A DNA stretch of 59,164 bases, the filler included, from Asterionella formosa (lineage: Eukaryota), in assembly GCA_002256025.1 (NCBI GenBank). It is 4 parts of 4 records of this genome, joined end to end, with 100 filler letters (N's around TTAATTAATTAA, not from the genome) between each part and the next. Parts side by side here need not be neighbours in the genome. Positions count along the whole stretch, not along the records: positions 1 to 14,726 come from NKIB01005805.1; 3 more parts are not named here. One strand, written 5' to 3'. Position 1 is the stretch's first letter, and every line of letters starts with the position of its first letter. A program made the translations under genes and the position numbers. This document shows, piece after piece, positions 1 through 44,627 of this stretch. The notes under the pieces were generated by a model. That model was not told the origin of the DNA and did no database searches. It was given only the letters and a program-made list of their open reading frames with translations.

Positions 1-1
1 G

Positions 2-172
2 AAGTTGAATGGTGATAGGGTTGGTGGTAGGTCGTTTGTTGATGACAGGTAAATCAACAGTGGCGTAATTGCCAGAACTACCAGAATCAGCAATGAGTGT
101 GACGGGGGGACAAGTGATGGGAGATAACTTTGTGTTAATAGTATTATCGGCAGCAACTTGCTCCCCTCCACA
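2..172 (-). CDS. pol: Copia pol N-terminus (aspartic protease), in frame with gag after a single TGA; partial
   Basis: Manual translation after the gag TGA: CGGEQVAADNTINTKLSPITCPPVTLIADSGSSGNYATVDLPVINKRPTTNPITIQL. Contains the DSG protease motif, with no stop up to the window edge. Confidence 0.8.
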
Positions 173-1261
173 TCAAGCAAGTGGTGAAGGTGGCGGTGAA
201 ACACGGGGTGGCCGGGTAGGACGGGGACCATCACTGAACAGACGGACGCTGCCACCCAGACGTCGATCAAGGGTGGCATTGAGTTGATGGCCAGAAGCTG
301 GATGATTGCAAGTTGCACTGGTATGGTCAGGGTTTTTGGTAAGACCATGAGTCCAACAATAGCCTAATTGGACATTGTTGTAAGTGTATCCAGAAGGGAC
401 AGCACGAGCAGCGGCAGCAATAGCTGGCAATGGGGGAGGGCCACTGGTTTGAATGGCAGCATGGGCACCATGATAACCGGCAGTGGTGGCGGTGGCAAGG
501 CGCAATCGTTCCTTATCAGCATGCATGAAATGTGGGCAAAAATTAACCCATGTACGGTCCAGCTCAGCGCGATCACGCCAAGTTTGAATGCTATGCGAAT
601 ATACACCAGCCTGTTCTAAAGCAGAAAGAGTCAATCGCATGACAGTACTGTCAGAGAAAGGTTCTCCACCAGCATCAGCAATGGCACGAAGATGTTTGAT
701 GCGGATCCATAAATGCTCAATAGGTTCCTCTGGTGTCCAAGCATCGGCCAAGCGCATGCGATTGAGTTCCAAATCATCCGCACTCAATGTTGCATATGTA
801 GATTCTAAGTGAGCAAGTAAGGTCAGAACAGTGATGTCTGCATATCCAAATGTAGCATCTTCCAGAACGTTGTAGTAGGTGGGGTCAATGGCTGTTAGAA
901 TTTGTTGTCGGAGAATTTCACGGATTTGGGAGTAACGGCGGAATGCGTCAAGGGAGGTGTCAAAGAGACGGTTGGCAGCAGTGATTTGGGACTGTGTTGC
1001 AGTAGCACTGTGTGTCGGCTGGATGCCGGGATGTTCGGGCGGTACAAAGGGTTCACCGGCACGTAAGAGATAAGGAGCAGCAGCCATGACAATACCAAGG
1101 AAACCATTGGCACCACCACCACTGGTACAGTGGACAGAGCGAGCGTTGGCAAAGAGTTCCTTGCGAAGGCGGGTTACAGTGAAGGCTGTAGGTTTGCCCT
1201 CGATCGGCGTCAAGAGCGGATGAGGGAAGGGGAAAACAGCCGAAACGATTGGAGTCGTCAT
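173..1261 (-). CDS. gag: Copia gag polyprotein
   Basis: 362-aa intact ORF with GGGxNGxLG motif, WxPxEPIExLW motif and C-terminal YCWTHG..H...C zinc knuckle, typical of diatom Copia gag. Confidence 0.88.
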   Translation of the reverse strand: MTTPIVSAVFPFPHPLLTPIEGKPTAFTVTRLRKELFANARSVHCTSGGGANGFLGIVMAAAPYLLRAGEPFVPPEHPGIQPTHSATATQSQITAANRLFDTSLDAFRRYSQIREILRQQILTAIDPTYYNVLEDATFGYADITVLTLLAHLESTYATLSADDLELNRMRLADAWTPEEPIEHLWIRIKHLRAIADAGGEPFSDSTVMRLTLSALEQAGVYSHSIQTWRDRAELDRTWVNFCPHFMHADKERLRLATATTAGYHGAHAAIQTSGPPPLPAIAAAARAVPSGYTYNNVQLGYCWTHGLTKNPDHTSATCNHPASGHQLNATLDRRLGGSVRLFSDGPRPTRPPRVSPPPSPLA

Positions 1262-1428
1262 GGTGGAAGAAGGCCTGAGAGACAGGGACAGCGAACGGGC
1301 AAGCGGTGCTGGACGGTTGATTGTTGAGACCAGTGCTGGTTTGCACTGTCGACAAGACCCGCAACTTCGCAGGTGCGGATAAGAGAGAAAGAACAGATAT
1401 TGTAGTTCTGTTGAGGGGAACCTTATCG

Positions 1429-1575
1429 TGAATAAAGGTGAACTACAATATTATGACTATTCTATTGCTGTTCCAAGTACATCGTTGTCAGCACTCACGC
1501 ATGTACCTAATCTGGTGGCTGCGCCGGTATGGTTCGTACGGCGCATGTATGGAGCATCATATGCAGATATTAACA
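1429..1575 (-). repeat. Probable 5' LTR (147 bp) of the Copia element
   Basis: Minus strand begins TGTTAATATC and ends TTTATTCA. Satellite sequence (ATCTTCCCTTCTGG...) resumes directly at 1576. The second LTR is outside the window. Confidence 0.6.
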
Positions 1576-2556
1576 ATCTTCCCTTCTGGTTTAACGTTGT
1601 CGATTTCGTAAGAGGTCGCGAGGTATTATATGTACGTTGAGTACTCAACCCTACAGAATTTCTATTTAATACCGGGTAAATAATGTCAAACATGTGTGCA
1701 CATCTTTTTTTTTTTATGTTGTCAATTTCCTAAGAGGTCGCTAGCTTGACTTGTATGTATGTTGAGAACTCCTCTACCAGGGTACCTGGTACCGGTACCC
1801 ATTTGAATTTCTATTTGTCATGTTAACTGGTATTCCTACTCCGTACATAGGTGCACATATTCCTTTTTGGTTTAACATTATCGATTTGCTAAGAGGTCGC
1901 GAGGTACTGTTGAACGTTGAGGACTAAAGCCTATTATTTACTGATTTTAACCATGTTTTATATGCCGGTATGAAGGTGCAGATCTTCCTCGTTGAACCTT
2001 GTTACCGGCAATGTTGTCGATTTCCTAAGAGGTCGCTAGTTGACTTGTATGAACGTTGAGCACTCTACCCTTCAGAATGTTCCTGCTCCGTAAATAGGTG
2101 CACATCTTCCCTTCTGGTTTTACGTTGTCGATTTCCTAAGAGGTCGCGAGGTACTGTATGTACGTTGAGGACTCTACCCTACAGAATTTCTATGAAACAA
2201 TGTTAACAATGTTTTACATACCGGTATGAAGGTGCACATCTTCCTCTTTGAACCTTGTTGATGTTGTCGATTTCCTAAGAGGTCGCTAGTTTGACTTGTA
2301 AATATCAACGTTGAGCACTCTACCCTTCAGAATTTCTATTTGGTCACGTTAACTCGATTTCCTAAGAGGTCGCGAGCTTGACTTGTATGTATGTTGAGAA
2401 CTCCTCTACCGGTAACAGGGTACCGGTACCAATTAGAATTTCTATTTGCCATGTTAACTGGTATTCCTACTCCGTACAAAGGTGCACATCTTCCTGTTTG
2501 GTTTAACGGTACCCTACTGTATGCACATTGAGGAGTATAGGCTACAGAATTTCTAT
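1576..2556. repeat. Degenerate tandem repeat (satellite-like), 87-159-bp units with alternating subtypes; resumes at 4321-4392
   Basis: Core TCGATTTCCTAAGAGGTCGC (with variants) at ~1600, 1722, 1881, 2017, 2128, 2267, 2354. Shared sub-motifs GGTGCACATCTT and CAGAATTTCTAT lie between cores. Confidence 0.9.
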
Positions 2557-4320
2557 CGGATTCTTTCCGGCTAGACTGATTTCAGTCTAATAGACTGGAT
2601 TCAGTCTGGGTTTTCAATCCCTTGCCCCTACCAGTAGCTCAATTCAGCAGATATTTCATTTCTGAAAAGTTAATCTAAATGTACAGAACTGTATGTTTCT
2701 GGAGGTATGAATGGCAACAAGCTTATGTAGGTTTTTTAAAAATTCAGATACATGAGAAGTCTGCCTGCCAAAAACTCTCAAAAATATCTGTGTGGGATGG
2801 CGCGAAAACAAAATTTGACAATGGACAAAGGTGCCGTCATTTCATGCCTTTCCAAATACATTCACCCATATCTGTGGGTCCAAAATCATCATGTGAACAT
2901 CGCAAAAGACCATCGACTTGAAAGAATGACATTTAGGCAGAGGGAGCTCAAGAAAATCAGAGGTAAGGATGCAATGGCTGTTGTGGTCACTGCTCCCGGG
3001 ACTTTAGATGATGTTGATATGACTGAGCTGTATGCCCTTGAAAATCGCTTCTAGATCATTTCCAATGGTGATCCAGACACCTTTTACTATGATGAAGGGG
3101 ATTATTTACTTGAGGAGCGAGGCAGCAGAAGGTGAAGCGATGCCTTCAAAGCTTCTCAAACTGCTTGTGAAGTGTACTGGTGCAGTTCTAGTCCCTGAAG
3201 ATGGTGCCATCCCAGCTGGATTTGTTGATATTGGTGTTGACAATGCCCCAGCATCTGATAAAGGTTTTTTCATAATGAAATTGCAAAACATTTGTTTGAC
3301 AATGAGTGGGATAAGTCAGGAATTCGCGACAGGAGCCAGTTGAATGGATCAAAGAGCAATCCAATATTTTCATCATTTCCAATTCATTTGAAGTTCACTA
3401 CCTTCCAGTTCTTTGATCAATCTTCTTTCCTTCAGAGCTCTGGAATGATTCGATTTTTTTATCATTGATCAAAAGGTTGAGGGCAAACCTGTAACCACTC
3501 AGATGGATTGAAAAAATGGTGGAATGAGAATGGTGAAGGGGAAAGTGTGCGTATATCATGAATAACAGAAAAGGATGACATTTACATTGGTTTTCTACAA
3601 CCACCAAAAAATTGGGATGCTGTTGATGATCAAGATGCAACAAGGCCTTCCCCAACAAGTTTGGAGTGGGAATGGGCGACAAAATTGTGGCCAAATAGAG
3701 TATTTGCATTCCTCGTTTTGGTCACAGAAGTAAATGCCAAGCTGGCATATTAACAACACTTCTGCAAAGAGGAGGTCAAAAGCATGCTCGGTTTTCGCAA
3801 GCTTTTTGCAGAGCCATTGGTATGTTATCATCATTATAACAAAGAAGACAAAGAATCGCCTAGAAGCTCGTCAAGATTGACTAAAAATGCTGAGCACATA
3901 GTTCTCCAGATACCCGGAGGCAAGAAATTTTTCGGGACAGAGGTTGTGGTTCTGACAGTTCCCACCTCCAAAGTACATGTGTAGACTGGAAAATGATCAC
4001 TAGGACAGGTTGTGTATGGTCCATGGGTATGCTTCGATGTGTTGATTGTTGTTTACATCATTCCATTGAAGCAGCATTGAGTCCTTCCAGTCCAGACTGA
4101 TCTGTGTCTGCAGAGTTTTTCTGGTTGTGACTGACACACGACTAAACTTTAGTGGTTCAAATTCCAATTCTTTGTCTTTAACACCATGTATAGCCCTTTT
4201 CATCAGGATAAAAAGCACTATCCAACAATGTATCTAAAGTTAGCGTAAAGTAACATCAAGGTTTTCAAATTGAGCCTCAAAGAGAGACTGAAATCAGCCT
4301 AATGAGCCAGAAAGAACCCG
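2557..4320 (+). mobile_element. Internally deleted piggyBac-like DNA transposon with TIRs and a 4-bp CTAT TSD
   Basis: TIRs CGGATTCTTTCCGGCT..GACTGATTTCAGTCT and reverse-complemented CGGGTTCTTTCTGGCT..GGCTGATTTCAGTCT. CTAT at 2553-2556 and 4321-4324. Frameshifted remnants include AVDDQDATRPSPTSLEWEWATKLWPNRVFAFLVLVTEVNAKLA and a C-terminal Cys cluster. Confidence 0.8.
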
Positions 4321-4770
4321 CTATTAAATAATGTTAACCATTTTTTTACATACCGGTATGTAGGTGCACATCTTCCTTTTTGAACCTTGTTAGCAGAGCA
4401 TCGCCACTGCATCGACCAATACCCAAAGCCAATTGCAGTTGAAAATATCAATACACGTCACTTCTTTGAGAAATTTTTTATCAATAGTACCAAATCCTAT
4501 ATTAGTCAATCTCGTGCCTACATTTTTAGCCAATAGAAATAAAAGGTAGACTGTAGTTTCATGTGTGTATCGCTTTTTAATTCATGAAGTAGCCGTATAC
4601 ATACCTTATTCTTAAACAGCTGGCAATACGCTTATCTGGTACTGACTAGTAAAGGAAAGTAGAAACATGATACACGATATATACAGTTGCAGTGCAAATC
4701 ACAACGATTCCAATCATTTCCGGACACAGAGAAAAACGTTTACCAAATGATAATTCTATGTATTAATCAT

Positions 4771-4890
4771 TTTTATAGCGCATTATTACTGATCTATTTC
4801 TAGGTTCGTCTTCATTGCGCTCCATGGCCCATGAAAGGTGGGGCGGTGGAGATGCATGGGTAGTCACTCCCTCGTGTGCTGGAAGTCTGC
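4771..4890 (-). mobile_element. 5'-truncated non-LTR retrotransposon 3' tail inserted in the Harbinger element
   Basis: Homologous to 6605-6730, sharing minus-strand GGGAGTGACTACC...GGGCCATGGAGCGCAATGAA...TGCGCTATAAAAA. Confidence 0.7.
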
Positions 4891-5238
4891 AAAATAAAAA
4901 AATTGATCTTACCAAATGTTGATTCTACTGGTGTGTGCTGCATAATTAATTTCATACCCTGTTGGTTTCACTGTTGGCTGGTACCAGGTAGCTGTTGGCT
5001 GTCCGGTATAAATCCATAGGTTGTTCAACATACATATGTATTGGTCATACATATTTCCACCATACTGTACCTGTTCACTATCATTGAATGATTTTGCTTA
5101 ACTGGGGTACATATTATATTTCTCTGCTACTACTGACCATCAAAAAAACTACAACTATGTACTAGAATATTGTTCGTAGAAAATTGTGGTGGCTTCTTTA
5201 TTACCAATAAATATGACTTTTATTTATACACAGCGAAA

Positions 5239-6537
5239 ATGAGCAATGATAGCAACTAGTCAGATGACGATCGCTTCTTCCACTTCCGCAATATGCGGAA
5301 GCAAAGCAAGAAGGCCAAGCAAGAAAGAAACAATGGAGGATGATCAAAGGTGGGAAAGGCATGATCCAATCTCAATCATTTTCGGACAGACTATGACAAG
5401 CTTTTGAAAAAGGATTATTTCGGCGAAAATCCGATTTACTCGTCAGCAAAGTTCAGAAGGCGCTTCTGGATGAGACGGTCATTGTTTGAGAAGATTCTTG
5501 ATGATTTGATTGCTTCGGATTCTTACTCTTCTCAGAAGAAGGATACTTTGGGTTTACTGGGATTTTCGCCACAGCAAAAACTTATCTCGGCGCTTCGCAT
5601 GTTAGGCTATGGAATGTCGGCTGATAAGTTGGACAATTTAACAAGGATGTCAGAGTCAACAACACTCAACAATCTGCAACACTTCTGTAACACAATAATA
5701 ACAGGTATGGGAAAGATTATCTTAGAGCTCCGACCAAAGAGGACCTTGAGATGATTCTATGTTTGCATGAAGGAAAGGGTTGGCTGTGGCTTTTTGGTTC
5801 ATTGGACATCATGCATTGTTGGGAGTGGAAAAACTGTCCCAAAGCACACAGAGGAGCATATCAAGAAGGAAAAGAAGGAGTGGCGGCTATTGCTTTGTAA
5901 GCTGCGGTTGATTGTAGACTTTGGTTCTGGCATGCATGGTTTGGAATGCCCAGGGCAAACAATGATCTTAATATTTTGGATCGTTCACCGTTTTTCCATA
6001 GTTTGTCAGCTGGAAGGATTCCAAGAGTACAGTTTGCCATCAACAACCAACAACACAATCTGGGGTATTATTTGGTTGATGGAATCTACCCAAATTGTTG
6101 GCATATATTTGTCAAAACTATTTCAGAGCCACAAGGTCCAAAGTGGAGTTATTTCTTGATGCGTCAGGAGGCACAGTGCAAGGACGTCGAGCAAGCATTT
6201 GGAGTTCTACTACAGGCCAGGTGGAGGATCCTTGCACTTCCATGTAAACTTTGGTCAGTGGGTGCTATGAATAGTGTAATTATTGCATGCATCATTTTGC
6301 ACAACATGATGATAAAAGACAAGTGGGAAACTGAAAATACAAATGAATATCTTTGACAATATTCAGGATGGATTTTTGGTTGATAACGTGAATCATGACA
6401 ATGTAAATACATTTCTTGATTTCAAGAATATTAGAATGAACTACATGAGTGAAGGTGAGCTCTTTCAATTGCGTAACAATTTGATTGAGCACTTGTGGAT
6501 TCAAAACGAGAAAAAATCTAACTTGATTCTAGAGTAA
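5239..6537 (+). pseudogene. Harbinger/PIF DDE transposase pseudogene (frameshifted)
   Basis: Motifs across shifted frames: KFRRRFWMRRSLF, QKLISALRMLGYG, WKNCPKA, ANNDLNILDRS, YYLVDGIYP, KDVEQAFGVL.ARW, ACIILHNM, LRNNLIEHLW. Confidence 0.9.
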
Positions 6538-6604
6538 TATTTTTAAGTCTGTAAAATACAAGTTCTAGATTGGCGATAATGATATGAATAAAAAGTAAAA
6601 ATAA

Positions 6605-8190
6605 TTTTTATAGCGCACTAGTACTACTAGCCTTGTTACAGGATCGTATTCATTGCGCTCCATGGCCCTGAAAAGTTTGGGTGGTGGAGGTTGGGTGTTG
6701 GTAGTCACTCCCTTGGCTGTGTAGGAGTTTGGTACAAACAATTTGGGTCAACCATGATCAGTTTCTGGTGTGGAGATACCGCCGTTTGCAAAAATGGGTC
6801 TGTAACCTTGTTGGTGTTGTCTGTTGTTGGTCATTAAACCCAGTCTAAGATGCCTGAGGAGCCTGTCTTTTCCCAAGCTGGAAAAGTGAAGATGTTCCAG
6901 AATTCTTATGTGATATGCCGGAAGGGCCTTGATTGTAGCTTGGTAGGTCCCTGATGTTATATTGAGATGTTTCTCCATGTCTTTCTTCTGCCTATATTGA
7001 ATGCGTCCCGTCAAGAGAAGATTGCAAGGATTGCTCTCTATTGGTGCTGGTCGCATCTTTGTTGTATGTCCCGCTGTACTTGTGTCGAATTTCAATCTTG
7101 TAAGTTGACAAGAGATATTTCTCTGCGTGGACCAGATGCCCTCTACTCTGGAGTATATCCAAAGTCTTTTTGTTTGTATATGAATCCTGGTATCCCACTC
7201 CATAGAGGAGTCCTTTTTCCAGCGCCCCAGACTTTGTTTCAGTTGCAGCAGTTTTTTAAATCCTTGCGTAAGAAAATGTTTGCTAGTAAGAGCCTCCTGC
7301 CAATCTTGTTTTTGCATTGCTGTTGGTTCCGGTTGTCGTGGCTATTCCCATCTTGAGTGACAATGAGCAATCCTTCTGCGATCCATATTTTCATGCCTGA
7401 TACCAGTGCCATCTGCTGTCAAGATATCCGAAATTGTTGCAACCTGGAGATACATCCTGCACGCATTGATGTGGTATTGCTTGTATTTGCTTACTCCTTT
7501 GCTAATAAGGCGGCCCTTCATTATCATTTCGTCATGCTGACAAGATGGTGTTACTGTCCACTGGTTGCTGGTTTCTATTTGTAGTTTGTGTTTGCCCATG
7601 AAAGTTCTCTTATTCGTGATCCATGATTTGGTAATGTATGGAATTTGAATTTCTGGATGAAGTAATAAATGTTCTTCAAACCCAGATTGCAACTGGGAAA
7701 TCCTCAGGGAAATGTCCATCAATTTTTGGCCACCTCATCGTCCGCGTATTTATGGTACAAAAATCCCTTCCACCGCTCTAATGCCTTTCTCAATTGTTGA
7801 ATCCACCATACTGAGTGCCCCCCTTTCGTTTAGTCCATACACTGATGCTTTTGGGAAGTTTTGATTGAATCCTATTTTTGCGAGACTCTTGCGTGGCAGG
7901 CCTTTTTCTAAATATTGATGAATATGTCATTTGAGGTGCCCAGATAGTTTTATGAGCTTGAATCGGGTCATACCTCCTGTTAAGACTGTGGGACATTGTG
8001 AGGACTGCATGCTTGTTACTTTTTGTTTTCATTCTTTCTTCCTCATCCTGCCACTGCCCAGAGGGACTTGTCAAAACTCCTAGTGCTTTATTACTGCAAG
8101 TTGGTGCTCTGTGTTTGATTTTTGTTGTGGTGTTGTCTCTTCCTGACCTTAATTCAAGTGCTTTATAGATTCCCAGATTGGTCTTGTATA
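6605..8190 (-). mobile_element. Non-LTR retrotransposon (LINE) 3' remnant: post-RT region, C-terminus and 3' UTR
   Basis: Fragments KALGVLTSPSGQW, IWAPQMTYS, HINACRMYLQVATISDILTADG, typical of stramenopile LINE ORF2 downstream of RT. Homologous to 22791-23288. Cut on the right by the pogo left end. Confidence 0.8.
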
Positions 8191-9880
8191 CCGTAAAACC
8201 TGGTGTCTCGTACCCCTCAATGTACACAGCCACGACTGATTTTACTTAGAGGGGGTACAAGACATTGGAACTTTTTTGATTGTCAAATTTTATGAAAAAC
8301 CAACTTCACCACCGTTTTCTCCATAGTCTAAAACATAAATAGCAACATTAAAAGATATATTGTTTTAGGTTCAATCGGCTTATAGGATCAATTGAATTTC
8401 TATTTTTGGAGCACTGGTGCGCCCAAATTTCGTCATGACCAACAGAAATTTCTAGAGTGTATACAATTTGTACCTGATTCTACGATGTAATAAATTGTGT
8501 AGGTTCTACAAACCTAATCGTGATAGAAATTGAGGTTAGCCAACCAAATCATTTTCTATGGAATCATCAGCATGACAACGAAAAAATATCTTTGCGTCAG
8601 GCAAAAGAAAAATATTGTTGCGGAAGCATACAGCAAGCCCAACAATATCAAGGCAACCGCCAGAGCATATTTGGTTCAGCCAAAGCAGATCCGGAGCTGG
8701 AAGTCCATGCTGGATGGTACAATGGTTGTGGTTCTGGCGGAGGTGGCGGAGATTCCTCTGTAGGAAGAACAAGGTTTGATTCAGAGGCAGGTGTTGATGA
8801 AAAAAATCGCTCACCCGGGCCGCTCTCCAAAAAGTGCTGCTGATTTTGAAGGATTGAAGGCTCTTTTCGACCAGTTGCGGCTTCAAGATAGGGCCTGCAC
8901 CACCAGGATGCTCAGTGTTGAGCTTAAGAGGCCTTGGAACGAAAAATTTTCGCTGAAGGCACTTGAAAAACGGATCAAGCGCTGGCTTGCCCGTAAGGAC
9001 ATTGTCATTAGGCATGTGACTTGTGTCGCCCAAAATACAAGGCTGGACCAGGAGACAATTCAAGATTTTTTTCCTACGTCAACAATCAAATTGCTGCGTT
9101 CGAATTTCCTGCTGGATCATTGTCAATATTGATGAGACAATCATCAATTTTGACATGTTTGGATCAAAGACTTTGGCAACCCGAGGCGAAAGGACCATTG
9201 GGCTTCGAACAACAGGAAATTCGAGCCGTTGCACTGTGTTGTTAGTGGTGACAATGAGTGTGAGAAGTTGCCACAATTCATTGTATTTACAGGAACAAGG
9301 GATGGACGTATTGCCAGGCAATTGGGATTACTAGACAACAATCAACAATTTTTTCCGGTTGGTATTAAATACGCTTGTCAACCCAAAAGCTTGGGTTGAT
9401 ACAGACATACTTTTACAATGGATCGAAAAAGTTTGGCAACCATTTGTGTTGGGGAAAAGGCGGTGAGCCTACTCACCTTCTTATGGATGATTTTACTGTC
9501 CACAGGTAGGACGTTGTGTTGATGCAATTAAAAATTGCGGCACTGGGTGCTGAGGTTGATTTCATCCTCCCAGGCTACACATCTAGACTTCAAGTGTTGG
9601 ATGTAGGAGTTAATAAGCCCTTCAAGGACTACATGAGAGGATATTGGGAAGACTACATGGTTGCCAATGTGGATAATGCCAAGGTGCAAAGGCACCACAT
9701 TGCACAATGGGTAGAGATGGCATGGGCTAGAGTCTCAATTCAAACAATCACCAATACCTGGAAGAGCATCATTGGATTTGAGGGCATTGCTGCTGATAAC
9801 TAGTCAATTAGGATTGGATTATTTGATAATCTATTTTAACATTTAGTTTTAGTGAAACAATCATTATCGTCAATTAGATT
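8191..9880 (+). mobile_element. pogo-like (Tc1/mariner) DNA transposon remnant; transposase pseudogene ~8572-9803
   Basis: TA followed by CCGTAAAACC at 8189-8200. HTH (NNIKATARAYLVQPKQIRSW), CENP-B-like HTH, and DDE_1 motifs IVNIDET, LLMDDFTVH, PGYTSRLQVLDVGVNKPFK. Several frameshifts; right TIR not found. Confidence 0.88.
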
Positions 9881-9919
9881 CAGGACGGCAAACCCTAATA
9901 GGCAAATAAATTAAGCTGA

Positions 9920-11216
9920 TGACTACAAAAAACCCAAAACGAAGTGATTCTAATGCTGAAAATGCTAATCTCTAATAGCTTTTCGCAAGGCTGCTGTCAA
10001 GAAGATTTGGCCAAATGCCGAATTTACATTGCTTTGGTATGTGCTCTTATCATGCCTGGAATGCATGGGTAAAGAAGCATATTGGAAAGTTCAAGAAATA
10101 CGACAAAAACAAGAAGAGAATGGGTGAAGACTTCGAGGCATATAAAAGAAGTCCCTGGATACAGCTAGTTCCAATCCTCCGCGATTTGATGATTTTCAAG
10201 TGGATCAACACACATACAAGGAAAAGAAAGTTGCAACTGCATGGTTGAAACAATGGGGTCCCACCATTCACACCAGAATTGAACTGAACAGTTCCAATCT
10301 ACTTTGTAGTGGTTTGCCTGCACACAAGAACAACAATTCAGAGGGCATCAACAATGGTGATAAATCATTCTTTGACCACAGGAAGCCTTTAATGGCTAAC
10401 TTCATTCATAACATGTCTTACATATTAGAGGATCGTTCCAAAGGGGATCTATCATTTTGCTCCACTTTACACTCATCGGTACACTCGATCAATTTCTACA
10501 AGTCTATTTATAAGCTTCTTGAGAAAAGCCAAAATGGAGAAGCTACATTTCTCACAGTGACATTTGATTTCAAGTGTGATGCAATTAGAATCGGAGAGGG
10601 TTCATTGTTGATTGCGACATCGTCATTTGTGGACCTACTAAATATTATGTCCTCTATGCAAACAATGCAGTCCCAGAATACTGCAACTGCATTGTCACAG
10701 CACACTCAACTATCCCAATCTCGAAAGAGATATCTTTATATTGGTAATACAGAATCAGTTACTGCACTAACTGTTATGCAATTGATAAAGAAGAACAAAA
10801 TGCATGATGAGTACAAGCGCCGTCTCCAAAATCCAGAACAGTATTCTGCTAACCACACATTTGATGATGTCCTTTCCCTCACTCGCAGGTTTCACCTTAT
10901 TGAACCTATTGTGTCCAAGAGTGAAAACAATGATGTTGCTCTAACTAACTTTTTAGGAATTTTGGGAGCGTGTGGATTGGGACCCATTACGAGTAATAGC
11001 TTGAAAGCAATGGGAAATGCAGGCCTGCTCATATCTTGCCATTGTCACACGTATTTAGCAAACGCGTGGTGTAAACATGCATATGATTTTGCATTTGACC
11101 GTGGAATTATTTCAACCTTTCCAAAGACAATGCATCCAAAGCCTAGTATTAAGAATAAAGGTTCTGGACGAATCAAAAATGCGAAACGTGGAGGGAACTT
11201 AGATATTAAAGGATGA
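9920..11216 (+). pseudogene. MULE transposase C-terminal half (second acidic region, CxxH, catalytic Glu, SWIM zinc finger)
   Basis: AFRKAAVKKIWPNA..MCSYHAW (CxxH), GLPAHKNNNSEGINN (NNxxExxN) and CHCHTYLANAWCKHAY (SWIM). Frameshifted near 10015 and 10200. Confidence 0.8.
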
Positions 11217-11261
11217 CTATAGTTAGAAAAGAACTAGTAGTGATTATAATAGTTGTCATTA

Positions 11262-12458
11262 CTAGATAGGAATATTATTAGTTTTCCTATGTCTAACAAG
11301 CTCTTCCAGGGCAGACTTAATCGATGCAAATATGAATCTTTGCGCTTTGTGGTGTTCATGGCTTATCACTCCATATGCAATCGTTTTCGTTTGTTGAGCC
11401 AAGTTGGTTGTAATCACTGGAAAAACGCCGTTTCCTTCTTGTGTCAGTCTGTAAGATGATTCAGCAGCGAAGAAGATTGGATTGCCCCAGATTCTTGGTT
11501 GTTAGTACAGCTACCAAAGAGTCGTCATCTGGTTGACAGTCTATGCCAAGTAGGTACATTGAATGTTGCGTGAAATTAAATATATTTTCCTTCTTATCCG
11601 ATTCAAGGACAGCAGCGATTCCTCCCCAGTTATTGCCTTGACCATTAATTAGCCCAACCGATTTATTGCGTAAGCGAGTGAGTTGTCGTTTCATACACTT
11701 TTTCAAATTTTCATCAACAGGAATTCCTTTTGCCCTAGCCTCAGCAATGTAACGTGCTGGTTTCATGTTCAATTTATTCGGGGAAGTAATTAACACAGAC
11801 TGATAGTATTTGTGAATACGTTTTCTTATGCCATCCTTGACATCATTATGTTGTGTGTGTTTTAAATCACCAATCTCAATTGTGGTCAAATTCGTTTTGG
11901 TATGGAATAATTCACAAATTACAAAGGGACATTTACAGGAATGAAAAAATGTGCATCTTTTCTTGTTTGTAACTCGAATGCCATCAGGTCTAAAGTACGG
12001 ACGATCTTTTGCTAAACACATGAGACTCCCGCCACCTCCAAAATTCCGTTGTCCCAAATCGCAAAGGATACCTTCAACCACCCCAGTCTTGACATCCGTA
12101 GCAAAATAATTATTCACCCACACCTCGACTGTTGTTTCATTTGGTGGATTGACGAGAACACCATCATTGAGTGCTAAAAGAACCTCGCTTTCCAAAAAAC
12201 CCACCAGGCTCTTCTGTGACAGTACCCATTCCACCTTCGATTTCTTCGATATCAGAGCTGTTTGAAGTCATCCTCGTTACCCTCTTCAAATTCAGGCTGT
12301 TTTTCGATACCAGAACTGTCAGTACTATCACTGTCGCTATGACTGTGACTGTGACTGTCATCTTCATCAGCCACTTCTTCGCTTTTATCTGAGATATCTT
12401 CCATCCCAGTGGTTTTCAAACCACCGGGACAGTATGTAAACAAGTTTCGTCTCAACAT
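11262..12458 (-). pseudogene. MULE transposase N-terminal half (acidic N-terminus, WRKY/FLYWCH-like zinc finger, first RNase H strands)
   Basis: CTFFHSCKCPF...HTQH finger and VAVLTTKNL. A frameshift near 11490 leads to WGNPIFFAAESSYRLTQEGNGVFPVITTNLAQQTKTIAYGVISHE...KSALEELVRHRKTNNIPI, ending in TAG TAA TGA. Confidence 0.75.
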
Positions 12459-12522
12459 GGAGGAGGGTCGTTAATTTAAGTAAATAAGGCCACTACTAAT
12501 GGTGGACCAAAACGCCAAGAAC

Positions 12523-12905
12523 CAATACCCGGTAGGAACATGACGTGGCTACTGTGAAACTGTACCTATTACTACGCTGGTACTGTGAAACTGTAGGTTT
12601 GCCCTACCAGCATTCCCTTCTTCCCCTTGTTTCAATACCCGGTAGGAACATGACTTGCTACTGTATAACTGTACCTATTACTACGCTAGTACTGTGAAAC
12701 TGTAGGTTGCCCTACCAGCATTCCCTTCTTCCCCTTGTTTCAATACCCGGTAGGAACATGACGTGGCTAATGTGAAACTGTACCTATTTCTACGCTATTA
12801 CTGTGAAACTGTAGGTTTGCCCTACCAGCATTCCCTTCTTCCCCTTGTGTCAATCCCCGGTAGGAACATGACATGGCTACTATGAAACTGTACCTATTTC
12901 TACGC
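12523..12905. repeat. Tandem repeat, ~110-bp unit x3.5
   Basis: Units begin CAATACCCGGTAGGAACATGAC at 12523, 12633, 12741 and 12851. Confidence 0.95.
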
Positions 12906-13108
12906 CGGTAGATAAATTATTGCATTACGTACCATGTAAACATGATGTCGCATTTATGACTATATTTAACCCCCTACTCAAGATTCCATAGAACTATGAA
13001 CCATGACAAATAGTGCTTAAATGAAAGTCACTACAAAATTGACGTAGAGGAATTTGTTGCATCTTGAAATGTTGTATGTTAATCTCTTCATACATAAATA
13101 TACAGGTA

Positions 13109-14726
13109 TGTTGATCAGACCGATCGAAATTCTGACGTGGTCACCTCGACAGAATTCTTCTTCCCGATTTTCCTCGGAACTAAATATTGCATGGTTTATA
13201 ACACTTTATAATCTTAGTTTGTGTTTTCTCCTTCTTTGATCGTCGCTTCATACTCTTTGTATACCTCATGAGCCTCGTCAATCGTTAGCGTGTTTGTTGA
13301 GATCAGAACAGTTTATCAGACCCATAGCACTCGAAAGAGGGAAGAGAAGGTTTGAGAAGAATCGGACGATAGCAACTGCGATTGCGCCATTGTGAGCAAC
13401 AAGTGCCGGAAGTTGCGTCGGTGACAAGCACAACAAACAGTCACAGTATCTCACTGTCTAAACAGCAGATCATCCAACTTTGGAGTGACAGGTCAAAGGG
13501 ACCGTAAGACACAGGGTGTCATCGTTCACACATTTTGTCATTGTGACATAAAATCCCACCGGAAGAGGGATTGTGTGCTGTTGTTGTTGGATAGATTCCA
13601 CTCATCAAAGAACATATATAAAGTCGGCATGGCCGAACAGAACGACGATCGCCCAGGCGAAAGAGAACATTTTAAAAATGCACTGATCCACGTGGTGCAA
13701 TTAAATGAAGCACAAGCAGATCGTTTGATCATGCAAGACATTTCAATGTCATCCGAGCTCTCATATGTTGATGACGAGACTCTTATGTTATGTTTCCAAG
13801 CTAATAATCGTCCTACAGCTGGAAAGAAAATGCGACTGATGGCATTTAAGATGTGGATCAGAGAACAACAGGCAAATGAAGGTTTCGGAAATGTATCTTC
13901 AAACTATTTTACAAATGAAGAACTAACAAAAATGCTTGAACAGGTTGGAAATGGCCAAAAACGCACCATTGACGCATCACAAAGAAACTATGTCCGTGAT
14001 ATTAAAGAACCTGAACCATGGCTTGGCAAACCACAAGATTGGCGTAAGCGAAAGCGAGAGCTCATTGCTTATATGGCTAAATGCCGCAATCGCAACAATG
14101 TCCCTTTTCTTTACCTCATAAGAGAAGAACAAGGATATATTGAAACTGATGACAATGACATGAGTGTGATCATCAGGGATACCCCACATCACGGAAGTGT
14201 CTATCAAGCAGACAACTATGATTTCTTCCAAGTGTTAATTAGCTGGACAAGTGGTGGCACGATGGAAGCACTTGTTGACCGTTACCGTTCCACCAAGGAT
14301 GGGAGATCAGCATGGCAGATGATTATAACGATGATGGACGGTCAAGATTCATGCAATGCAAGGATTAAGGATGCAGATGCGAGAATTGATAATGCATTCT
14401 ACAGAGAAGACAGATCTCAATTCACATTCGAACAATATTGCGCAGTTCATATAACTTCCAACATTGAAATGGAAGAATTAAATGTCCAACGTGATGGTTT
14501 TACACAAGTTCGTAAATTTCTGGATGGTATCAAACACCAGAGCATGCAAGGCCTTAAATTCCTAATTATGGACAACGAGAAAACAAAAGCAGACCTCCAA
14601 GCTGCAGTAATCAAAATGAAGGACCTCTGGAACCAGTCAAAGCCTGCTGCTGCCTCATCCTCAAACACACGTAATCGTGACGAACAAAATATAGGCAACG
14701 CGAACTTCCGCGCATTCAGGGGTGGC
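13109..14726 (+). mobile_element. Second Copia (CoDi-like) LTR retrotransposon, 5' part; runs into an assembly gap
   Basis: Candidate LTR TGTTGATC...CCTCA at 13109-13268 (boundaries uncertain), followed by a leader and an intact gag ORF. Confidence 0.75.
13629..14726 (+). CDS. gag: Copia gag protein (partial, truncated by gap)
   Basis: Motifs VPFLYLIRE, GSVYQADN, DGRSAW, FTFEQY and QVRKFLDGIK, characteristic of diatom Copia gag. ATG at 13629. Confidence 0.82.
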
Positions 14727-14826
14727 NNNNNNNNNNNNNNNNNNNNNNNNNNNNNNNNNNNNNNNNNNNNTTAATTAATTAANNNNNNNNNNNNNNNNNN
14801 NNNNNNNNNNNNNNNNNNNNNNNNNN
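14727..14826. other. Assembly spacer (Ns around TTAATTAATTAA); same at 29551-29650 and 44358-44457; plain N gaps at 33932-34126 and 38352-38753
   Basis: Identical 100-bp N/TTAATTAATTAA/N cassette three times. Confidence 0.97.
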
Positions 14827-18950: not shown

Positions 18951-19017
18951 AAGAGTAATATGGAGGTTTAAATATAATTACCAATATCAGTAAGGCAGGG
19001 CACTACTGACATTCCCA

Positions 19018-21009
19018 TTAACCCCAAAAACTAGTAGACAAGCCATTGTGACCCTTGCCACCCTTACTGCGAGAAGAGCCTTGATCCCCAGGAGTGCTGC
19101 TAGAGGAACCCTTGCCACCCTTACCGCTAGAGGGATCTTGATCCCAAGGAGTGCTGCTGGGGGAACTCTTGCCATTATTACTACCAGAGGGAACTTGATC
19201 CCCAGGAGTGCTGCTAGGGTAACCATTGGAGCCCTTACTGCCAGAGGGGCCTTGATCCCCAGGAGTGCTACTAGAGGAACCCTTGCCACCATTACTGCTA
19301 GAGGGACCTTCATCACCAGGAGTGCTGCTAGGGGAACCCTTGCCACCTTTACTGCCAGAGGGACCTTGATCCCCAGGAGTGCTGCTTGGGGAACCATTGG
19401 AGCCCTTGCCACCTTTGCCGCCCTTGCCACCTTTGCCGCCCTTACCACCTTTGCCCCCTTTACTACCTTTGCCAGTAGAGGTATCTGAATCATTGGGAGT
19501 AGCTACTGGCGAGGAATCCGGTGAAGGAGTTGATATTCCAGGTGGAGCAGCCAGAAACGGTGTTGGCGTGAACACAACAGGGATCGGCGCTGGGGTTGGA
19601 ATAACAACAGGAACAGGCACTGGCGCTGGAATAACAAGAGGAACTGGTGCCGGAGTAGAACTATCAACAGGGTTCGTAGCTGGACTGTCGACGGGAATTG
19701 GCGGAGGAGTCGATATTCCTGGAGGTGCAAGCAGAAACGGTGCCGGCGTGGACTCAACAAGGATCGGCGCTGGGGTTGGAATAACAACAGGAACAAAAAT
19801 TGGCACTGGCGCTGGGGTTGGAATAACAACAGGAACTGGTGCCGGAGTAGAACTATAAACAGGGTTCATAGCTGGACTGGCGCCAGCAATTGGTGGAGGA
19901 GTCGATATTCCTGGAGGTGCGACCAGAAACGGTGCCGGCGTGGACTCAACAGAGACTGGTACTGGGGTTGGAACAATGATAGGGCTTGGGGATGGGTTGC
20001 CAGGTGTGATGCTAGTAGGGGAACCCTTGCTTCCCTTGCTGCCAGAGGGAGCTTGATCCCCAGGAGTGCTGCTAGGGAAACCATTAGAGCCCATGCCACC
20101 TTTGCCACCCATACCACCTTTTCCAACCATGCCACCTTTTCCACCCATGCCACCTTTGCCGCCCTTACCACCCATGCCACCTTTGCTGCCCTTACCACCT
20201 TTGCCCCCTTTACTACCTTTGCCAGTAGAGGTATCTGAATCATTGGGAGTAGCTACTGGCGAGGAATCCGGTGAAGGAGTTGATATTCCAGGTGGAGCAG
20301 CCAGAAACGGTGCCGGCGTGGACACAACAGCGATCGGCGCTGGGGTTGGAATAACAACAGGAACAAAAACTGGCACTGGCGCTGGGGTTGGAATAACAAC
20401 AGGAACTGGTGCCGGAGTAGAACTATAAACAGGGTTCATAGCTGGACTGGCGCCAGCAATTGGTGGAGGAGTCGATATTCCTGGAGGTGCGACCAGAAAT
20501 GGTGCCGGTGTGGACACAACAGCGATCGGCACTGGGGTTGGAATAAAAACAGGAACTGGGGCTGGAGTTGGAATAGCAAGAGGAACTGGCGCAGGGGTTG
20601 GAATAACAACAGGAGCTGGCGCAGCGGTTGGAATAACAACAGGGACTGGCGCAGGGGTAGGAATAACAACAGGAACTGGGCTTGGGGTTGGAATAACAAC
20701 AGGAGCTGGGGCTGGGGTTGGAATAGCAACAGGAACTGGCGCAGGGGTTGGAATAATAACAGGAGCTGGGGTTGGAATAACAACAGGAACTGGCGCTGGG
20801 GTTGGAATAACAACAGGAACTGGTGCCGGGGTAGAACTATAAACAGGGCTCATAGCCGGACTGTCGACAGGAATTGGTGCAGGAGTCACAGGCACAACGG
20901 GAGCAGAAGTTGTCACAACAACGGGAATCGGCCAAGGACTAGCCTGTGCCAGGGCACCGCTGGTGAGAAGGCAGAGGCCCATGGCGAGTTCAGTGATGCA
21001 AAACTTCAT
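19018..21009 (-). CDS. Secreted Pro/Thr/Val-rich repeat protein with Gly/Lys (KxxK) clusters; silaffin-like or cell-wall/adhesion protein
   Basis: Signal peptide MKFCITELAMGLCLLTSGALA, (PTPAPVPVVI)n blocks, GKGSKGGKGGKG blocks and 20-aa C-terminal repeats; uninterrupted ORF. Confidence 0.8.
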   Translation of the reverse strand: MKFCITELAMGLCLLTSGALAQASPWPIPVVVTTSAPVVPVTPAPIPVDSPAMSPVYSSTPAPVPVVIPTPAPVPVVIPTPAPVIIPTPAPVPVAIPTPAPAPVVIPTPSPVPVVIPTPAPVPVVIPTAAPAPVVIPTPAPVPLAIPTPAPVPVFIPTPVPIAVVSTPAPFLVAPPGISTPPPIAGASPAMNPVYSSTPAPVPVVIPTPAPVPVFVPVVIPTPAPIAVVSTPAPFLAAPPGISTPSPDSSPVATPNDSDTSTGKGSKGGKGGKGSKGGMGGKGGKGGMGGKGGMVGKGGMGGKGGMGSNGFPSSTPGDQAPSGSKGSKGSPTSITPGNPSPSPIIVPTPVPVSVESTPAPFLVAPPGISTPPPIAGASPAMNPVYSSTPAPVPVVIPTPAPVPIFVPVVIPTPAPILVESTPAPFLLAPPGISTPPPIPVDSPATNPVDSSTPAPVPLVIPAPVPVPVVIPTPAPIPVVFTPTPFLAAPPGISTPSPDSSPVATPNDSDTSTGKGSKGGKGGKGGKGGKGGKGGKGSNGSPSSTPGDQGPSGSKGGKGSPSSTPGDEGPSSSNGGKGSSSSTPGDQGPSGSKGSNGYPSSTPGDQVPSGSNNGKSSPSSTPWDQDPSSGKGGKGSSSSTPGDQGSSRSKGGKGHNGLSTSFWG

Positions 21010-29550: not shown

Positions 29551-29651
29551 NNNNNNNNNNNNNNNNNNNNNNNNNNNNNNNNNNNNNNNNNNNNTTAATT
29601 AATTAANNNNNNNNNNNNNNNNNNNNNNNNNNNNNNNNNNNNNNNNNNNNG

Positions 29652-44122: not shown

Positions 44123-44627
44123 GCTCAACTAATGATTTTTTCTGTCACGCTATAGCTGAACAGGAGCTGATTAGAGAGTTTTGTATCGTGTTGATGTCGT
44201 AGTAATTGTGAGGATGGTTTCGATAACCGGTATACCGGTTTGCAGGACTACCGGTATCCATGGTACCTGGTACCTGGTACTGGGCGGTTGTATTCATGAT
44301 CGTATGATATTTTGGTGGTTGGTGTCTAACTGCCCCCCTGATGATAGTACGCTGCTTNNNNNNNNNNNNNNNNNNNNNNNNNNNNNNNNNNNNNNNNNNN
44401 NTTAATTAATTAANNNNNNNNNNNNNNNNNNNNNNNNNNNNNNNNNNNNNNNNNNNNTTGGTAATGATCACTAGGGCTGATACTATCATGGTACCTATAC
44501 TGTCTTTTTTTAAACCTCCTACCTGTCCTACATTCAATGACTGCACCAAAATTATGGTCCACCTCATGACAACCAATATTCACCAACCCACACACAAAGT
44601 GTGTATGTGTGTGTGTCATCATAATCA

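Follow-up and report, generated by a model that had tools for sequence, protein, structure and literature searches.

To our knowledge, DDE transposases and integrases are single catalytic domains, and in the heteromeric systems Tn7 TnsA/B and RAG1/2 each active site lies within one chain. The DDE site lies entirely in RAG1L; its partner RAG2L has an unrelated, accessory fold. Mutator/MULE elements have TSDs of 8–11 bp, and in the same source the 'MULE-Diatoms' group 37 is listed with one ORF, second ORFs being treated as extras (PMC6446971). A Phaeodactylum tricornutum MULE likewise has its MULE and SWIM domains in one ORF (10.1101/2023.01.02.522487). In IS256-family ISCth4 (PDB 6xg8), a bacterial transposase whose one polypeptide homodimerizes and has neither a split nor SWIM, the corresponding residues are D175, D241, C262/H265 and E348, and the N-terminal domains bind the subterminal TIR (PMC7780238).

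Here we describe a transposon family of Asterionella formosa that is best read as encoding a naturally split, two-chain Mutator-type transposase of presumed activity. Like Mutator/MULE elements, the family has TSDs of 9–10 bp, TIRs, a candidate N-terminal finger, a DDE domain with CxxH and a helical insertion, a candidate C-terminal SWIM-type finger and cargo ORFs. It differs from them in matching PF10551 only below the cut-off and in its short (~60 bp), imperfect TIRs, which are mismatched at their tips. Whereas canonical MULEs (MuDR, MULE-Diatoms) have a single-ORF transposase, here the triad is divided, with D1 in one gene and D2 and E in the other; and whereas the second ORF of MuDR is not part of the transposase, here both genes are. 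The order D, D, CxxH, helical insertion, E is that of ISCth4. The catalytic domain itself is divided, in contrast to the complete DDE site and unrelated subunit of RAGL/ProtoRAG. What is shared with that system is the plan of a TIR transposon with two convergent genes whose products cooperate (PMC7204232), here by prediction. With KolobokP the family has in common long direct repeats close to its two ends and a wealth of solo-like derivatives (PMC9587614), but KolobokP belongs to another superfamily, the repeats of the split family lie inside unique TIR-bearing ends and we saw no homing endonuclease in the split family.

In the openly available literature that we searched, outside Repbase and the PMC6446971 supplements, no split MULE or DDE transposase is described. 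If the triad is naturally divided, and has stayed so throughout a deep lineage, the transposase architecture would be new. Such a split would offer an AND-gate on transposition, through two promoters, stoichiometry and possible interference of convergent transcripts, and a tolerated split site could be used to engineer conditional transposases. The family has been missed by Pfam and by single-ORF annotation because neither half reaches the MULE cut-off and each resembles a hypothetical protein or a pseudogene.

The two facing genes of the window copy

The window, a stretch of 59,164 nucleotides, contains a copy of the family. Positions 1–14726 are a single contig of a fragmented 68-Mb eukaryotic assembly and the only part contiguous with the split-transposase locus; the rest consists of unrelated contigs, separated by artificial spacers (N-runs around TTAATTAATTAA, at 14727–14826, 29551–29650 and 44358–44457). 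Six-frame translation recovered the minus-strand gene of the preliminary description, with its acidic N-terminus, finger and first RNase H strands (FFAAESSY lies within beta1–beta3) and a C-terminus of IPI followed by TAG TAA TGA. The spacing between the facing stops is exactly that described (Table 1).

Table 1 Features of the window copy and its surroundings (window positions)
Feature	Position	Strand	Details
Truncated pogo/DDE_1-type repeat, outside the element	8189–9977	+	PF03184, E = 2.4e-08; fused by deletion to the C-half
C-half transposase gene remnant	9976–11216	+	From about codon 92 of 498; ends in TGA at 11216
C-half CxxH	10042–10053	+	C at 10042, H at 10051
C-half catalytic E	10341–10343	+	Within NNNSEG
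C-half SWIM-type finger	11037–11078	+	C-x-C...C-x-H pattern
Gap between facing stops	11217–11261	none	45 bp
N-half transposase gene	11262–12458	−	407 aa in family majority; acidic leader, C2H2 finger, helical region, RNase H beta1–beta3, then helix
N-half D1 codon	11462–11460	−	E in window copy
N-half finger	11955–11857	−	C-x-C...H-x-H pattern; C at 11955, H at 11859
Upstream region of N-half gene, then subfamily-specific segment	12459–12910	none	Common to L050, L113 and L102
109-bp tandem repeat	12523–12910		~3.5 copies; stands where long copies have cargo genes
Start of the element's right-hand segment	12911–13076	+	Includes first 100 bp of ~520-bp direct repeat (12978–13076)
Interruption of the right-hand segment by another element	about 13070–13076		Right TIR absent from contig

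The plus-strand gene had been placed from ~9920, but family similarity begins at 9976 and the sequence before it belongs to a separate pogo-type repeat. A deletion took ~1.15 kb of the left end, and with it the start codon, the Ser/Asp/Glu-rich leader and the second catalytic Asp (D2) of the C-half, all of which are present in other copies. Of the parts said to be supplied by this gene, CxxH, the glutamate and the SWIM-type finger are in place. The glutamate noted at D1 is there, as damage of the window copy: where aligned copies retain the codon, it reads D in 13 of 14. The description of the copy as decayed holds, with frameshifts in both genes (three in the N-half, near 12261, 12198 and 11490). 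With D2 and the left end deleted, both frames shifted and the right end gone, the window copy is dead.

The triple stop is likewise real in the window copy but is not a family feature. It ends the N-half in 6 of the 19 copies that retain this end, a seventh having it one codon later; four diverged copies end in a single TAA, and the diverged subfamily lacks it altogether. The position of the stop is conserved among copies and the triple-stop sequence is not, and we reject the idea of a designed feature.

The N-half of the window matched PF10551 weakly, over profile positions 8–65 of 99 only (E = 0.013, 16.3 bits), below the cut-off of 27.6 bits, which was not reached by P0011 (14.2), the unsplit protein P0148 (16.5) or the best relative (27.1) either; each half holds only part of this profile. 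P0215 exceeded the cut-off of the related PF21056 (28.3 versus 27.2). No Pfam matches to PF04434 or PF04500 were obtained in the family or the relatives scanned. The Cys/His patterns of the finger and the SWIM-type finger are present and conserved, and language-model look-alikes fell in FLYWCH, MULE and SWIM clusters (0.83–0.90), which we treat as leads only. By its conserved motifs, and by the modelled fold of an unsplit relative, the protein has the RNase H-fold DDE domain of Mutator/MULE transposases, in which CxxH follows D2 and a helical insertion precedes E.

Genomic copies, element ends and transcripts

Searches of the genome returned 106 and 79 pieces matching the two halves. We examined the layout in 41 stretches, comprising 40 fetched around matches and the window. 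One half was found in 16 of them, and the 25 with both halves comprised 24 convergent pairs, no colinear N-to-C arrangement and a single same-strand C-to-N locus. In this last locus the halves, 3.1 kb apart, have 85% and 41–42% protein identity, and we read it as two insertions of different age. The convergent layout extends to copies at 72–81% nucleotide identity. The proposed check of this layout in other copies comes out in its favour at 24 of the 25 loci with both halves.

Although each of 18 aligned copies is decayed, their majority sequence reads through two uninterrupted frames, of 498 aa (plus) and 407 aa (minus). Where present, the catalytic codons are kept: D1 in 13/14 copies, D2 in 15/17, C in 17/18, H in 18/18 and E in 13/15. 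The C-half majority opens with a Met of its own, followed by a leader in which Ser, Asp and Glu make up 52% of 60 residues. This start is shared by an independent database protein, P0002. No intact single copy was found in the genome, all aligned copies lying 3–7% from the majority.

Comparison of the main subfamily with the majority of six diverged copies gave dN/dS of 0.137 for the C-half (485 codons, dS 0.81) and 0.111 for the N-half (273 codons, dS 0.87), against 1.7–1.9 in wrong-frame controls. Because both subfamilies share the split layout, values near 0.1 for both halves indicate that each was selected as a protein after the split; to judge from these substitutions, purifying selection has acted on both.

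Complete copies are bounded by imperfect TIRs of ~60 bp, 80–89% identical and mismatched in their first seven bases, and are flanked by TSDs of 9–10 bp, within the 8–11 bp of Mutator/MULE elements. TSD matches were 9/9 (L038), 10/10 (L108), 8/9 (L109), 8/10 (L110) and 7/10 (C3878); the window copy has lost both ends. For L038, the empty site was found in two other loci. TSDs and copy number are evidence of past mobility, and the split transposase is the presumed agent. Genome searches with P0148, P0033 and P0207 matched only the split family. Separately, the genome holds a canonical unsplit MULE family (L091–L100), with ten PF10551 matches above the cut-off.

RNA libraries holding the element are algal and freshwater metatranscriptomes. 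Contigs from four of the seven listed runs were placed on a full core copy, and both genes were covered in all four; contig depth is unusable for ranking expression. One X7 contig carries an untemplated A-run ~20 nt past the N-half stop (the RNA status of this run is presumed), and transfer from the copy carrying the RNA contig puts polyadenylation of the N-half transcript near window position 11242 (−). An X2 contig that bridges the two genes across their gap is either DNA or read-through. Among the short contigs listed for the four runs, from which rare forms had been dropped, there was no strand-changing, trans-spliced joint. These data weakly favour separate mRNAs for the halves, and with the poly(A) tail after the N-half stop they speak against the trans-splicing that had been offered as an alternative.

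Distant relatives, the break point and predicted assembly

A profile search with the C-half identified 237 representatives at 50% clustering, of which 150 were listed. Among these 150, in the columns covered, D2 is kept in 97/98, C in 99/102, H in 102/104 and E in 105/108. Only 2 of the 29 listed proteins with at least 90 residues before D2 match the N-half there, P0148 (782 aa) and P0091 (859 aa), and the leaders of the other 27 are unrelated to it. Leader length varies, and 59 of the 67 listed C-halves with at least 45 residues before D2 begin with Met. Both halves tile P0148 and P0091 colinearly, without overlap and with almost no gap. The halves of the window copy likewise align to separate, complementary stretches of one unsplit relative. 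The preliminary description had noted no overlap in domain content, which agrees with this complementarity, and we reject an origin of the halves from different MULE families, since each aligns to the complementary part of the same unsplit proteins.

The N-half search yielded 38 proteins within a size limit of 104–615 aa, which places fused forms outside its range. N-half-only proteins down to 26% identity retain D1 in 32/33. Twenty-four of 31, including some near-copies from the Asterionella formosa family, stop 35–38 residues past the beta3 marker, that is, within four residues of one point; the other seven end 6, 23, 27, 40, 47, 48 and 56 residues past it. In unsplit forms D2 lies 66–67 residues past this marker. 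The same break thus recurs in proteins at 26–60% identity, as the proposed comparison of break points in relatives had sought. Among half-only proteins, in which mean column identity is 15–26%, D1, D2, E and CxxH hardly vary. The database proteins are automatic gene calls. An intron artefact would scatter the N-half ends rather than fix them, and is inapplicable to convergent genes.

Linkage of the two halves was seen in the Asterionella formosa family. A 45% identical relative (L086) has a stand-alone C-half, apparently with an intron, that lies tail-to-tail with an unrelated 1,429-aa DUF6824 gene (L086:1695–5984, −) at a distance of 39 bp. Its 6.2-kb contig has no N-half and stops a little upstream of where the C-half begins. 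Convergent pairing of the halves is therefore not universal, and the tight tail-to-tail spacing, which had been taken as a sign of an evolved layout, is a weak one. The DUF6824 gene may be further cargo or a neighbour in the host genome. A metagenome scan with P0004 gave no loci, and a scan with A4 gave five, four of them too short to reveal a neighbour; viral and prokaryote-genome scans with either half gave no matches. P0020 (C-half) and P0207 (N-half) each come from a JGI contig of 3,710 bp, which hints at one shared contig.

In quick C-half trees, the two unsplit proteins are nested among split ones, but constraining them with the canonical MULE outgroup was not rejected (p-AU 0.216). The N-half tree places them near the root with weak support (76); short fragments (61, 39, 23 and 20 rows) are omitted from these trees. 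The unsplit relatives may be ancestral or re-fused, both being compatible with the trees.

In the AlphaFold2 model of P0199, an unsplit relative (pLDDT 88, pTM 0.89), the break falls in a long loop (residues 139–168, pLDDT ~60 at its centre) between the post-beta3 helix and the D2 strand. The best structural match of this model was ISCth4 (Foldseek E = 2.3e-04; Z = 12.5, rmsd 4.5, 239 aligned), followed by integrases and Hermes. We co-folded P0002 residues 45–300 with the C-terminal 141 residues of one N-half copy, using no alignments. The pair scored 0.71, against 0.00 for the best of three controls, and reached the mark, as did 51 of 78 solved complexes but only 2 of 108 mismatched pairs; for the halves of a split domain, likeness to solved folds may suffice to do so. 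Contact agreement between runs was at least 64% and partner pLDDT at least 73, with a C-chain pLDDT of only ~52. The predicted interface of the putative heterodimer includes C-chain residues 86–89 (D2) and N-chain residues 123–125 (D1). The proposed co-folding check thus comes out in favour at the level of prediction, where it indicates compatibility of the halves rather than binding.

We propose that one Mutator-type (MULE/IS256-like) DDE transposase has been cut in the loop between its first and second catalytic Asp, and that the halves, likely translated from separate mRNAs, would assemble into one RNase H domain. The N-chain would contribute the finger, the helical region, beta1–beta3 with D1 and the next helix, and likely binds the terminal repeats, its finger reading the TIR by analogy with the N-terminal domains of ISCth4. 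The C-chain, with a new Met and acidic leader, would supply beta4 with D2, CxxH, the helical insertion, E and the SWIM-type finger, and so complete the active site. Catalysis by this reconstituted enzyme, with such a division of labour, would cut and paste the element. That a DDE triad is drawn from two polypeptides, as the preliminary description had ventured, gains support from the 25 loci, the selection, the conserved break and the co-fold. We hold it very probable that the two chains are made separately and together form one RNase H domain (D1 from one, D2, CxxH and E from the other). It is likely, with somewhat greater reserve, that this is a large, old and widespread eukaryotic Mutator-type lineage with an obligate two-chain transposase split at one conserved loop, in which splitting is the norm (two of the 150 listed C-half relatives are unsplit) and the rare single-chain members may be re-fusions.

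An alternative that we consider very improbable is that the halves are no nuclease but are kept for DNA binding, anti-silencing or a host use, while a canonical MULE moves the element in trans. The canonical unsplit family in this genome could in principle do so, the abundant 1-kb non-autonomous derivatives attest that mobilization in trans happens, and L086 has a C-half without a paired N-half. Against this, D1, D2, E and CxxH are all but constant at so low a column identity, the low dN/dS of both halves occurs within TIR-bounded, TSD-flanked repeats, and the halves co-fold. Joining of the halves at a later stage, by RNA trans-splicing or intein-like protein splicing, would yield an ordinary transposase and would suit their almost gapless tiling of an unsplit protein; short contigs from which rare forms were dropped might also miss the joint. 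We regard this as very improbable, given the fixed N-half stop (24/31), the open, Met-initiated C-half leader of variable length, the poly(A) tail, the four runs free of strand-changing joints and the lack of any intein family in Pfam scans.

Unsplit colinear relatives exist and every copy seen is decayed, as would be expected had a one-off inversion killed a colinear MULE whose dead layout was then copied passively. To this we assign almost no probability and reject it: it is contradicted by dN/dS after the split and by the conserved N-half end, and the C-half has a dedicated start and leader. Since none of the 25 loci is colinear and both halves bear the mark of purifying selection, the earlier preference for an evolved layout over a random inversion stands. 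A two-chain transposase is the reading that we retain.

Cargo, derivatives and neighbouring repeats

Besides both halves, long copies (7.15 kb in C3878) carry a remnant resembling leucine-rich repeats, additional ORFs and a second ~520-bp segment. This segment is a direct repeat found inside both element ends, one copy lying within the left end. In L059/L071, L044 and L077 the cargo occupies ~4 kb right of the N-half gene and includes a degenerate ORF resembling leucine-rich repeats, an ORF on the minus strand whose HxD...H motifs are 2-oxoglutarate/Fe(II) oxygenase-like, and an ORF of ~196 aa. None of the cargo ORFs had a Pfam match above the cut-off, and the cargo is kept into the diverged subfamily at ~70% nucleotide identity. 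The subfamily of the window copy has the 109-bp tandem repeat where the cargo would be; on its own, this repeat is widespread in the genome (401 candidates, 40 scored).

Derivatives of 0.94–1.01 kb consist of the left end, one ~520-bp segment and the right end, and have their own TSDs (L108:3080–4093, L109:1556–2569 and L110:3149–4087). They are abundant, with 238 candidates for the right end, of which 40 were scored, and would be the expected product of recombination between the direct repeats.

The truncated pogo/DDE_1-type repeat beside the window copy has many copies at 92–96% identity (315 candidates, 40 scored) and contains a short G+C hairpin near 8204–8263. On the other side, the element at 13070–14726 begins with TGTTG, encodes an ORF of ~430 aa without a Pfam match and has a 96–100% identical stretch elsewhere in the genome; it resembles LTR and gag sequence from a young retrotransposon. 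Further afield, window positions 1576–2556 and 18991–20899 hold repeat families of 42–90 bp, interleaved with one another, and G+C-rich arrays in which units of 30 and 57 bp are repeated in tandem.
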